Shown here: piece after piece, positions 20,428-24,133 of the stretch | How the letters are laid out: every line of letters begins with the position of its first letter | Numbering within the stretch: position 1 is the first letter of the stretch | DNA from: Escherichia coli | Lineage (GTDB): Bacteria > Pseudomonadota > Gammaproteobacteria > Enterobacterales > Enterobacteriaceae | Strand: one strand, 5' to 3' | Length of the DNA stretch: 64,000 bases | NCBI RefSeq assembly: GCF_044324785.1 | Contig: NZ_CP172127.1 | Program-made: the position numbers and the translations under genes | The notes under the pieces: model-generated | What the model was told of the DNA's origin: nothing | Seen by the model: only the letters and a program-made list of their open reading frames with translations | The model's database searches: none

Positions 20428-21186
20428 ATGAGCCTGACCCTCACACTTACTGGCACTGGCGGCGCACAGGGCGTTCCCGCATGGGGCTGTGAGTGCGTGG
20501 CCTGCGTCAGAGCGCGGCGCTCACCGCAGTATCGCCGCCAGCCATGTAGCGGCGTCGTGAAGTTTAACGACGCGATCACCCTGATCGACGCCGGGCTGCA
20601 CGATCTCGCCGATCGCTGGTCGCCCGGATCGTTCCAGCAGTTTTTGCTGACGCACTACCATATGGATCACGTGCAGGGACTGTTTCCGCTGCGCTGGGGC
20701 GTGGGCGATCAGATCCCGGTCTACGGCCCGCCGGATGAACAGGGCTGCGACGATCTGTTTAAACATTCGGGCCTGCTTGATTTCAGCCACACGGTGGAGC
20801 CATTTGTGATGTTTGATTTGCAGGGATTACAGGTCACGCCGCTGCCGCTCAACCATTCGAAACTCACTTTCGGCTATCTACTGGAAACGGCACATAGCCG
20901 GGTGGCGTGGCTGTCTGACACCGCAGGCCTGCCGGAAAAAACGCTGAAATTTTTACGCAATAATCAGCCACAGGTAATGGTGATTGATTGCAGCCACCCA
21001 CCGCGCGAGGATGCACCGCGTAATCACTGTGATTTAAATACCGTGCTTGCGCTGAATCAGGTTATCCGCTCGCCACGGGTGATTCTGACTCATATCAGCC
21101 ACCAGTTTGATGCGTGGCTGATGGAAAACGCACTGCCGTCGGGGTTTGAGGCGGGGTTTGATGGGATGGAGATTGGGGTGGCGTGA
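20428..21186 (+). CDS. phnP: Metallo-beta-lactamase-fold phosphodiesterase PhnP
   Basis: 252 aa; HxHxDH motif ([10 protein letters not shown]). Confidence 0.9.
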
Positions 21187-21220
21187 TGGGTGAGGGGCGA
21201 TGCCTGCTCTAAACTCAACA

Positions 21221-21550
21221 TCACCGCCCATACTCATCTTCCATTCTCCGCTCTTCATCCTCCAGTTGCCGACGCTCCTGATCAAGCTGGCGCTGGCGAT
21301 CGTCCAGCTGCCTGCGGCGATCTTCAAACTGGCGGCGGCGATCGTCATATTGTCTGCGCCGATCGTCGTTCACTTCACGCTGCCAGCCGTCGTCGCGCGA
21401 ATCTTCATAGTCTCGCCCACGGTCAGGGTTATAAGCATCGTTAATCGCCTGCTGAATATTGCCAATGGTGTCGTCGATAATATCGGCCTGGGCCGGAACG
21501 GTGGACAGCGTGAGCAGGGTGAATAAAAGAAATAGCGGAAAACGTTTCAT
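21221..21550 (-). CDS. yjdP: Secreted low-complexity heptad-repeat protein YjdP
   Basis: 109 aa, signal peptide then six heptads DDRRRQY / DDRRRQF / EDRRRQL ... Confidence 0.85.
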   Translation of the reverse strand: MKRFPLFLLFTLLTLSTVPAQADIIDDTIGNIQQAINDAYNPDRGRDYEDSRDDGWQREVNDDRRRQYDDRRRQFEDRRRQLDDRQRQLDQERRQLEDEERRMEDEYGR

Positions 21551-21599
21551 TAGCCAACCTCAAAAAGAAACTCTATCCACATTAGTCATTACTCATCCA

Positions 21600-21960
21600 T
21601 GCAAGTAGTGGATGAATCTCAATTTCTCCGCTGCTCTATTGCCGTAATCGCCTCCACGCGTTGTTGATGACGACCGCCTTCGTACTGCGCGCCCAGCCAC
21701 GCATCCACAATCATTTTTGCCAGTTCGAGGCCAACCACTCGTGAACCAAAAGCCAGTGCAACTTCACTGGCGTAATGCGGATAATCAGTGCGCTCTGACG
21801 ACCTGGTTCTTTATCAATCCCCTCACTCATTGACCATAAATACAAGGCTGGCACAGCAACGCGGAATCCTGCGGTGCCAGCGACATGACCGCCCATTGCT
21901 CCGGTACTTTTTTTAAAAAGAAACATCGGTTGCATTGATAAATATATAAAACACCTCATA
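21600..21960 (-). pseudogene. Possible gene remnant between yjdP and yjcS
   Basis: 82-aa ORF 21711..21959 (-) with adjacent out-of-frame protein-like segments; no convincing start/RBS. Confidence 0.3.
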
Positions 21961-22147
21961 TTATTTACGGAGATAATAAATTCGCGTGCTTTTCCCTCTT
22001 CAGCACAAATGCCTAATAAAATGGCTCGTTCCGCTCACACTTCCACTTATTAAAGTCGCAATTTCCCAATTATGATAACGCCAGCTTTAAATGACGTATT
22101 TTGCATGGGTTACATATTTACGACACAAATGATAAATGGAGATTTAT

Positions 22148-24133
22148 ATGAATAACTCTCGGTTATTCCGTTTGAGCAGGATTGTTATTGCGTTAACTGC
22201 CGCCAGCGGCATGATGGTAAATACCGCTTACGCAACAGATGAAGCGAAAGCCGCCACTCAATATACCCAACAGATTAATCAGAATTACGCCAAATCATTA
22301 CCGTTTAGCGATCGTCAGGATTTTGACGATGCCCAGCGTGGATTTATCGCCCCGCTGCTGGATGAAGGTATTCTGCGTGATGCGAACGGTAAAGTTTACT
22401 ACCGCGCAGACGACTACAAATTTGATATTAATGCCGCTGCGCCGGAAACCGTAAACCCCAGCCTGTGGCGTCAGTCGCAGATCAACGGCATTTCTGGCCT
22501 GTTCAAAGTCACCGATAAAATGTATCAGGTGCGCGGCCAGGATATCTCTAACATTACATTTGTAGAAGGCGAGAAAGGCATTATTGTTATCGACCCGCTG
22601 GTGACGCCGCCTGCCGCAAAAGCCGCACTTGACCTTTACTTCCAGCATCGTCCGCAAAAACCGATTGTTGCTGTGATTTACACCCACAGCCACGCCGACC
22701 ATTATGGCGGTGTGAAAGGCATTATCTCTGAAGCGGATGTTAAATCCGGCAAAGTGCAGGTGATCGCTCCGGCAGGCTTTATGGACGAAGCCATCAGCGA
22801 AAACGTGCTGGCGGGTAACATCATGAGCCGCCGTGCGCTCTACTCTTACGGTCTGTTACTGCCGCACAACGCGCAAGGCAACGTGGGCAACGGCCTGGGC
22901 GTGACGCTGGCAACCGGCGACCCGAGCATTATTGCACCGACTAAAACTATCGTCAGAACTGGCGAGAAGATGATTATCGACGGCCTGGAATTTGACTTCC
23001 TGATGACTCCGGGTAGCGAAGCGCCAGCCGAAATGCACTTCTACATTCCGGCCCTGAAAGCCCTGTGTACCGCCGAGAACGCCACGCATACCCTGCACAA
23101 CTTCTACACTCTGCGCGGCGCGAAAACCCGCGATACCAGCAAGTGGACCGAGTACCTGAACGAAACGCTGGATATGTGGGGTAACGACGCGGAAGTACTG
23201 TTTATGCCGCACACCTGGCCGGTCTGGGGCAATAAGCATATCAATGATTATATTGGTAAATATCGCGATACTATCAAGTACATTCACGACCAGACCCTGC
23301 ACCTGGCGAACCAGGGCTACACCATGAATGAAATCGGCGACATGATTAAGCTACCGCCTGCGCTTGCCAATAACTGGGCCAGCCGCGGCTATTACGGTTC
23401 TGTCAGCCACAACGCCCGCGCGGTGTATAACTTCTATCTTGGCTATTACGACGGTAACCCGGCTAACCTGCATCCATATGGTCAGGTGGAGATGGGTAAA
23501 CGTTACGTGCAGGCTCTGGGCGGTTCTGCCCGCGTCATCAACCTGGCGAAAGAAGCGAACAAGCAAGGTGATTATCGCTGGTCGGCAGAACTGCTGAAAC
23601 AGGTGATTGCCGCCAACCCTGGTGACCAGGTCGCGAAGAATCTGCAAGCGAATAACTTTGAACAGCTGGGCTATCAGGCCGAGTCCGCCACCTGGCGCGG
23701 TTTCTACCTGACCGGCGCGAAAGAGCTGCGCGAAGGGGTGCATAAATTCAGCCACGGCACCACCGGTTCCCCGGACACCATTCGCGGAATGTCGGTCGAA
23801 ATGCTGTTCGACTTTATGTCCGTTCGCCTCGATAGCGCGAAAGCCGCGGGTAAAAATATCAGCCTGAACTTCAATATGAGCAACGGCGATAACCTCAACC
23901 TGACGCTGAACGATAGCGTGCTTAACTACCGTAAAACGCTGCAACCGCAAGCCGACGCCTCTTTCTACATCAGCCGTGAAGATCTGCACGCCGTGCTGAC
24001 CGGACAAGTCAAAATGGCGGATCTGGTAAAAGCGAAGAAAGCCAAAATTATTGGCAATGGCGCGAAACTGGAAGAAATTATTGCCTGTCTGGATAATTTC
24101 GATTTGTGGGTGAATATCGTAACCCCAAATTAA
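22148..24133 (+). CDS. yjcS: Alkyl/aryl-sulfatase YjcS (metallo-beta-lactamase fold, periplasmic)
   Basis: 661 aa from ATG 22148; signal peptide, HSHADHYGG motif. Confidence 0.88.

Follow-up and report, generated by a model that had tools for sequence, protein, structure and literature searches.

The Escherichia coli gene yjdP encodes six strongly conserved charged heptads, near-fixed in number, with a 21-nt DNA periodicity that follows from the protein repeat

The feature examined here is a 330-nt ORF on the minus strand (21221..21550; 109 codons and a stop codon) of a 64,000-nt stretch of Escherichia coli DNA, hereafter the window. An earlier note, made from the sequence alone, had named its product YjdP, and this identification was borne out by the RefSeq name and by a match to the NCBIfam model NF041443, 'DDRRRQL repeat protein YjdP' (147.4 bits, E = 1.2e-43, profile positions 1-101 of 101; the curated cut-off of this equivalog model, DDRRRQL_YjdP, is 90 bits). 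The sequence and an alignment of homologues show the architecture of the NF041443 family: a signal peptide, an ADIIDD..IGNIQQAINDAY segment, then DDRRRQL-type heptads. Homologues carry the Pfam assignment PF28054 (YjdP) in precomputed annotations; our Pfam profile search with YjdP, run on a copy of Pfam that predates PF28054, gave sub-threshold noise only, and in the family-model search of YjdP no model besides its own rose above threshold. RefSeq names yjdP in 5,404 of 5,426 complete E. coli genomes. The window feature is an already-catalogued gene, and its repeat is already recognized in public annotation. In the literature, we found yjdP mentioned in lists and maps, with no experiment on its localization, structure or function, and a search under b4487 returned nothing relevant.

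The K-12 gene (b4487) is the same gene and occupies the same position, convergent with phnP, as in the window. The yjdP of K-12 strain J53 is 6 nt and 1 aa apart from the window gene, and the window allele has N61 where K-12 has S61. The surroundings differ at two points: the K-12 yjdP-phnP interval holds a 112-nt repeat element that is missing from the window, and K-12 has an intact rpiB-als locus, whereas the window yjdP adjoins a decayed rpiB remnant. The convergence of yjdP with phnP (20428-21186 in the window) also was seen in E. coli, Citrobacter, and Buttiauxella, and where the phn operon is absent or reduced, yjdP adjoins a phnH-family gene, yjdM or yjdN; the window gene lies at this conserved chromosomal position by the phn/yjdM region. 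On the upstream side, the window carries yjcS (22136-24133) and then the rpiB remnant. This side of yjdP is a known variable locus; in EHEC, the allose genes between yjcS and yjdP have given way to the OI167 island (PMC10128022).

The 109-aa product reads MKRFPLFLLFTLLTLSTVPAQA-DIIDDTIGNIQQAINDAYNPDRGRDYEDSRDDGWQREVN-DDRRRQY DDRRRQF EDRRRQL DDRQRQL DQERRQL EDEERRM-EDEYGR. Residues 1-22 (21485..21550, minus) have the n/h/c layout of a Sec signal peptide, MKR / FPLFLLFTLLTLSTV / PAQA, with a positive n-region (MKR), a hydrophobic core of 15 residues, an A-x-A site, and no lipobox cysteine. Sequence rules predict cleavage before D23 (AQA|D). In the alignment, the mature start ADIID is kept across genera while the signal peptide itself diverges. 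As the earlier note had proposed in calling the protein secreted, YjdP is apparently exported by the Sec route and presumably is periplasmic. The mature form would have 87 residues, of which 28 are acidic and 20 basic, with a net charge of about -8. Its first segment, residues 23-43 (DIIDDTIGNIQQAINDAYNPD; 21422..21484, minus), is conserved in all homologues and is predicted to form an amphipathic helix, with a hydrophobic moment of 1.8 versus 0.8 for the repeat. An acidic and Arg-containing linker follows at residues 44-61 (RGRDYEDSRDDGWQREVN; 21368..21421, minus) and differs in length among genera. The six heptads, residues 62-103 (21242..21367, minus), read exactly as they had been listed in the earlier note and form the core of a predicted charged alpha-helix of 54 residues.

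Given the earlier observation that the heptads are mirrored by a 21-nt recurrence in the DNA, we compared the periodicity with two kinds of expectation. Tandem Repeats Finder detected it over units 1-4 (21295..21367, plus), with a period of 21 in 3.5 copies (78% matches) and also a period of 42 in 2 copies, and GGCGATCGTC (at most one mismatch) was found on the plus strand at 21295, 21316, 21337, and 21358, a spacing of exactly 21 nt. Across all six units, the nucleotide identity at a lag of 21 was 0.648, compared with 0.347 ± 0.049 for codon shuffles, none of which reached the observed value in 20,000 trials. The recurrence noted earlier is real, and far above chance. When the 42 heptad residues were re-encoded with synonymous codons sampled according to codon usage in the window, the lag-21 identity was 0.643 ± 0.031, placing the observed 0.648 at the median. 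Since recoding gives an equal identity, the periodicity follows passively from the repeated protein sequence and has no independent role, and the DNA shows no homogeneity beyond what the peptide predicts.

Comparison of the units with one another gave 13-18 identical bases out of 21 within units 1-4, the only ones clearly alike as DNA, and 7-12 where unit 5 or 6 was one of the pair. Adjacent units are alike at 10-16 of 21 bases, the best pair is units 2 and 4 (18/21), and the longest exact word common to two units is 10 nt (GACGATCGCC). This unit-to-unit comparison gave no sign of recent duplication or homogenization of the heptad units, and the array does not contain the near-identical tandem DNA units that characterize a VNTR.

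We next considered conservation at the protein level. The window and Citrobacter genes differ at 75 of 330 nt, and the codon differences are 19 synonymous and 1 non-synonymous in the heptad repeat, 8 and 8 in the signal peptide, and 12 and 9 in the N-terminal part. By this measure, the heptads are the most constrained part of YjdP and appear to be under strong purifying selection. Each unit keeps its own identity at the seventh residue (Y, F, L, L, L, and M in order). In an alignment of homologues from Escherichia (including E. fergusonii), Citrobacter, Buttiauxella, Cronobacter, Entomohabitans, and metagenome contigs, these six hydrophobic positions are kept in 13 of 13 standard-length sequences, down to 38% identity; two length variants chosen for the alignment carry 5 and 8 such positions. 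All five named genera keep six heptads, and Y68, Q81, Q86, L89, D90, L96, and R102 are invariant. One of the metagenome homologues clusters with a protein from a Klebsiella MAG. A search of 1.84 billion representative proteins returned only 51 clusters, made up of the enterobacterial family and compositional matches to long repeat proteins, and none of these representatives was an informative distant relative. Because this exhaustive search gave so few clusters, the family is small and essentially confined to Enterobacteriaceae.

The earlier note had counted the lack of a predicted helix among the outcomes against its reading; an AlphaFold2 (AF2) model of YjdP, run with an alignment of 15 sequences, does predict the heptads to be helical, with high confidence. 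Residues 55-108 are predicted as one continuous helix, with block-mean pLDDT of 83-97 over residues 61-109 (10-residue blocks). Confidence is low elsewhere: residues 4-16 are modeled as a signal-peptide helix (block-mean pLDDT 52-55), residues 18-40 as a helix (pLDDT 52-66), and residues 41-54 as coil (block-mean pLDDT 52-66). The long helix is to be read with the caveats that AF2 tends to render charged repeats helical and that aspartate is a weaker helix former than glutamate. Within residues 55-108, 63% of residues are charged, and their order is strongly patterned: 35 opposite-charge pairs were counted at i+3/i+4, compared with 20.3 ± 3.4 in shuffled sequences (P about 1e-4), and 4 like-charge pairs, compared with 19.3 ± 3.4 (P about 1e-4 or below).

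Charged single alpha-helix (SAH, ER/K motif) domains are found, for example, in myosin VI/X and caldesmon. YjdP resembles them in having a long charged helix in which opposite charges are enriched and like charges depleted at i/i+3 and i/i+4. It differs in using Asp, Arg, and Gln where SAH domains use Glu, Lys, and Arg; in being bacterial, predicted to be exported, and only 54 residues long in its helix; and in having no sequence homology to them. The YjdP helix also keeps one conserved hydrophobic residue per heptad, which is atypical of pure single alpha-helices. This Y F L L L M stripe is conserved, although its hydrophobic moment is low (0.8). YjdP also has in common with long charged helices of the periplasm, such as TolA domain II, a highly charged helical segment in an envelope protein, but this resemblance is compositional only, and YjdP has neither a membrane anchor nor a C-terminal globular domain. 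The resemblance is reflected in automatic JGI names on homologues, 'membrane protein involved in colicin uptake' and 'Skp family chaperone'.

A regular heptad spacing could also indicate a canonical coiled coil: YjdP would then be an oligomeric periplasmic rod, a homodimer or trimer resembling a leucine zipper, with the Y/F/L/L/L/M column at a core position. The hydrophobic spacing is a strict 7 residues across six in-register heptads, as in a leucine zipper, and if Leu is placed at d, the g (R64, R71, R78, R85) and e' (D69, E76, D83, D90) positions would be charge-complementary in a parallel dimer. A leucine zipper needs hydrophobic residues at both a and d, however, and YjdP has a single hydrophobic position per heptad, the second core position (a or d) being Arg, Gln or Glu in every heptad, which is strongly unfavorable; the charge pattern, moreover, is of the intrahelical type. 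A profile search of solved structures did not find a solved relative, giving only weak compositional matches with E ≥ 0.026, all of them to coiled coils (M protein, GCN4 fusions; E = 0.03-0.8). Foldseek comparison of the monomer model with the PDB returned one meaningless match (E = 4.5), a single helix being no searchable fold. We also used a concatenated alignment to model two mature copies in tandem, mature-(GGGGS)6-mature. The two helices were kept at pLDDT of about 90 with a pTM of 0.45, but the geometry was not readable and Foldseek returned nothing for the linked model, so that it is not evidence of pairing. As the would-be core partner positions are Arg, Gln or Glu, we favor for the predicted helix a salt-bridge-stabilized single helix with a thin hydrophobic stripe rather than a canonical coiled coil, which we regard as doubtful.

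The composition of mature YjdP, with 55% of residues charged and a linker rich in Asp, Gly, and Asn, also would suit an intrinsically disordered, hydrophilin-like polyampholyte in which the heptads are a by-product of compositional selection, as would the co-induction of yjdP with the osmotic and desiccation genes osmB, osmY, otsAB, yjbJ, and wca (PMC5105897). Such a protein would not be expected to show a charge order this far from random on both measures (P about 1e-4 or below), the residues invariant across genera listed above, or a predicted helix with AF2 confidence above 90, and we consider the disordered reading improbable.

The earlier note also had raised the possibility that the DNA repeats allow heptad number to vary by slippage or recombination. 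Length variants do exist. Among 120 protein clusters, the mature length is 87 residues in 58 and 80 in 33, while 73 and 101 residues were found once each, and the natural alleles of 95, 102, and 123 aa differ by exactly 7 or 14 residues. The 80-residue forms are six distinct one-heptad deletions, with junctions DDRRKQY-NDRRRQL, ..QF-EDRQRQL, S-DDRRRQF.., ..QY-EDRRRQL, and ..QY-DDRRRQL, or with loss of EDEERRM. Together with one two-unit deletion (P0112, 95 aa) and one 42-nt tandem duplication in an E. albertii strain (P0037, 123 aa), there are at least eight independent alleles with gain or loss of heptads, all in frame and of one or two units. In DNA alignments, the junctions in P0040, P0025, and P0037 sit in direct repeats of 8-9 nt such as GATCGCCGC, and these junctions are as expected for slipped-strand or microhomology events, judging from the aligned sequences.

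These alleles are rare among complete genomes. The commonest, of 102 aa, accounts for 16 of 5,405 records at ≥99% identity and 2 at 95-99%, or ~18 of 5,404 complete E. coli genomes, and in three evenly spaced samples of 60 genomes the repeat region had the standard length in every row except that of the 102-aa allele itself. The same allele occurs in 2,561 index blocks of a wider assembly collection, and its being common there indicates that five units are tolerated. The frequent strain-to-strain differences in copy number that mark a VNTR were not seen in complete genomes. Heptad number is almost fixed, six units are the selected state, and the locus is not a slippage-prone variable repeat. 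What stood of the earlier proposal are the in-frame variants with microhomology at their junctions; what did not is a special role for the DNA repeats, as the periodicity is passive and six units are near-fixed. An invariant repeat number, which had been named as the outcome that would speak against variation, is nearly but not strictly what the strains show.

The pattern bears on the idea that the array is a contingency-type variable repeat, subject to frequent slippage and to adaptive variation in the size of a secreted protein. Like the VNTRs of bacterial surface and secreted proteins, yjdP has in-frame tandem coding repeats, rare whole-unit alleles of several independent origins, and microhomology at junctions, and one allele, that of 102 aa, is widespread in public assemblies. 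Unlike those VNTRs, its units are degenerate in DNA and nearly fixed in number: they are only 62-86% identical with no common word longer than 10 nt, their DNA similarity is that expected from the protein alone, six units are kept across genera and, with few exceptions, in the complete E. coli genomes sampled, and constraint within the protein is strongest on the heptads (19 synonymous to 1 non-synonymous). On/off switching by heptad number is impossible as the unit length is divisible by three. The contingency reading is largely refuted, and we hold it to be very improbable. That the real gene is instead the 108-codon ORF open on the opposite strand (21200..21526, plus), or that the repeat is non-coding DNA, can be dismissed, since Citrobacter differences at yjdP codon positions 1, 2, and 3 number 15, 8, and 52, the antisense frame gives 10 synonymous and 53 non-synonymous differences versus 42 and 21 in the yjdP frame, only the yjdP frame matches a curated family, and an open antisense frame is expected from GAN/CGN-rich codons.

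True VNTR behavior within yjdP was found only in the signal peptide. Here, the window has three imperfect 9-nt units, TTCACCCTG CTCACGCTG TCCACCGTT, encoding FTL LTL STV (21497..21523, minus; from the alignment). ST131-like strains have at the signal-peptide core a perfect (TTCACGCTG)n encoding (FTL)n, and their yjdP alleles of 339, 348, 357, and 366 nt differ only in n, with 3, 4, 5, and 6 TTCACGCTG units, respectively; the window carries an imperfect, stable version of this repeat. Where the DNA units are identical, their number changes readily, and where they are degenerate, it holds steady; this contrast fits the mechanistic reading of the heptads given above.

We also examined the region upstream of yjdP by aligning seven lineages (E. 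coli, O157, E. albertii, Citrobacter, Cronobacter, Buttiauxella, and Entomohabitans), which have different upstream genes and are otherwise unalignable outside a single conserved block. In the window, this block is TTGAGATTCATCCACTAC (21605..21622, minus); its consensus across the lineages is TTGAGAATCCTCCGCTAC, with 11 of 16 positions invariant. A conserved TAnnnT lies 23 nt downstream of the block, which in the window corresponds to a candidate -10 hexamer, TAATGT (21579..21584, minus), whose T, A, and T columns are invariant in the seven lineages, and then comes GAGG (21558..21561, minus), a Shine-Dalgarno-like sequence 7 nt upstream of the ATG that is partly conserved in the alignment. The block abuts a poor -35 sequence, TACTTG, the position expected for an activator-dependent promoter. 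A simple sigma-70 scan upstream of yjdP called no promoter, candidate -10 included, consistent with a promoter of this kind.

Within the block, TGAGATTCATCCAC at 21608-21621 fits the RcsB box TN(G/A)GAN4TC(T/C)NA, which was defined structurally and by EMSA in Salmonella (PMC7913699), at all but the last base. RcsB-like patterns as such are not enriched in the window (7 found versus 8.9 expected), so that conservation and position are what give this box its weight. LmvR, a response regulator encoded on the O157 island beside yjdP, was considered as the factor acting at the box and rejected, as its published site is the AT-rich ATTTTA-N3-ATTAGA, unlike the box. In E. coli RNA-seq, yjdP was induced 9.5- and 10.6-fold by a LolCDE inhibitor, along with rcsA, wca, osmB, bdm, ivy, spy, and cpxP (PMC5105897). 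The conserved box and this induction suggest that yjdP is a gene of the Rcs envelope-stress response; as the response to the inhibitor takes in Rcs, Cpx, and RpoS genes alike, we infer Rcs dependence of yjdP rather than read it directly from the induction, and we give direct activation by RcsB about an even chance. In a ChIP-seq/RNA-seq study, yjdP is also named in a list of repressed genes that have a genic peak (PMC5217608); the list appears to be the CsiR set, since csiD is included.

Collectively, these data are probably best explained by an exported charged-helix protein with passive DNA periodicity, six selected units, and probable RcsB-type activation. In this explanation, YjdP would be a small, Sec-exported and presumably periplasmic protein, with its signal peptide cleaved to leave the 87-residue mature form, which would comprise the conserved amphipathic helix at the N terminus, a short acidic linker, and a helix of ~54 residues (roughly 8 nm). 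Acidic and Arg residues at i/i+3 and i/i+4 would set up an intrahelical salt-bridge network of the ER/K type, and the seventh residues of the heptads (Y, F, L, L, L, and M) would form a thin hydrophobic stripe through which YjdP could associate weakly with itself or bind a partner. The 21-nt periodicity would appear in whatever DNA encoded this protein. The heptad units would be old, individually conserved, and held by purifying selection, with slippage or recombination between microhomologies of 8-10 nt sometimes adding or removing one or two units in frame to give alleles that stay rare. Expression most likely would depend on an activator-dependent promoter with the RcsB-type box by the -35, placing yjdP in the Rcs envelope-stress response. 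What the analysis shows is the sequence anatomy, its conservation, the spectrum of alleles, the predicted helix and its charge patterning; export, the choice between a single helix and an oligomer, control by RcsB, and any envelope-protective role of YjdP are inferred.

A bolder version of this explanation, which we offer as speculative and rather unlikely, is that YjdP is a directly RcsB-activated periplasmic protein consisting essentially of one rigid, salt-bridge-stabilized SAH-type helix whose length (six heptads, about 6-8 nm) is selected, and which might serve as a spacer or bind envelope polymers electrostatically under outer-membrane or lipoprotein stress, with the signal-peptide repeat of ST131 tuning export. 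If this is true, YjdP would provide an SAH-type domain that is both bacterial and exported, a rare case.

For genome biology, the findings carry little weight, as public annotation already covers the gene, its repeat, and the family name, and the repeat is no variable locus: yjdP is an ordinary, strongly conserved, already-named gene. Its best mechanistic reading is that of an Rcs-induced periplasmic charged-helix protein. The modest value of the analysis lies in the internal contrast between stable, degenerate heptads and the variable, perfect 9-nt repeat of ST131-like strains; in a conserved RcsB-type box that could place yjdP in the Rcs regulon; and in a charged helix that is strongly constrained, fixed in length, and probably rigid, within an envelope-stress-responsive protein.

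In ST131-like E. coli, the core of the YjdP signal peptide is encoded by perfect tandem copies of a 9-nt unit, (TTCACGCTG)n, specifying (FTL)n, where n is 3, 4, 5 or 6 depending on the genome, with yjdP coding sequences of 339, 348, 357 or 366 nt (comparison loci L002:547-903, L017:61-426, L018:61-408 and L019:61-399). The window carries an imperfect counterpart in its own yjdP signal-peptide core (21497-21523, minus strand). The repeat of the ST131-like genes is a genuine copy-number polymorphism, and extra units give YjdP a longer hydrophobic core in its signal peptide.

We also noted broken alleles. In O157:H7 strain LSU61 (L001:585-914), a stop codon replaces Q21, within the signal peptide, and the RefSeq product is a shortened protein of 86 aa without a signal peptide. 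In contrast, O157:H7 strain ECP17-1298 (L016:124-453) retains an intact gene of 109 aa, indicating that yjdP has been inactivated in at least one O157:H7 sublineage. The yjdP of strain FLI21 (NZ_CP139808.1) is in two pieces, 2127266-2127444 and 2128212-2128471, separated by ~767 nt (matches H40, H100 and H160). The pieces share 9 nt of the query (positions 152-160), as would fit a putative insertion of IS1 type that duplicated a 9-bp target.

An ORF of 108 codons lies antisense to yjdP (21200-21526, plus strand). It was rejected as coding because of its substitution pattern relative to Citrobacter, with 10 synonymous and 53 non-synonymous changes in its own frame. In the window, yjdP and phnP converge across a gap of 34 nt (21187-21220, compared with L004 ~931-1076). 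In this gap, K-12 strains have an additional GC-rich, REP-like element of ~112 nt, listed in one paper as a G-quadruplex-hairpin element (PMC5100583), which is missing from the window, from ST131 and from the strain with the 102-aa allele.

On the upstream side, between yjdP and yjcS (22136-24133), the window contains an rpiB remnant (21619-21959, minus strand) corresponding to only the 3´ third of the gene, with homology to K-12 rpiB starting near 21770; the als and rpiR genes are absent from this interval. The annotation of strain 118UI treats this remnant as an ORF of 105 aa ('RpiB/LacA/LacB family'); in the window, stop codons and a shift of frame disrupt that ORF. The conserved RcsB-box-like motif (21608-21621, minus strand) has as its first three bases the TGA stop of the upstream gene remnant (21619-21621). 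Since the motif likewise starts with TGA in O157 and Citrobacter, directly after an upstream kinase gene, the replaceable upstream locus appears to end exactly at this motif. A perfect 7-bp inverted repeat, TCATCCA-N9-TGGATGA (21593-21615, minus strand), overlaps the RcsB-like box and the -35 position. E. coli alleles that have rpiB on their upstream side carry this repeat, but it is not conserved in other genera in alignment A4, which covers yjdP upstream regions from seven lineages.

In O157:H7, Citrobacter europaeus and Entomohabitans (L001:1-516, L012:667-2931 and L015:1085-2917), a gene for a hybrid sensor histidine kinase/response regulator directly precedes yjdP in the same orientation, 70-84 nt away; in O157:H7 this gene is LmvK, of island OI167. 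The kinase-yjdP arrangement may be the older one, with rpiB-als having replaced the kinase later in K-12-like E. coli.
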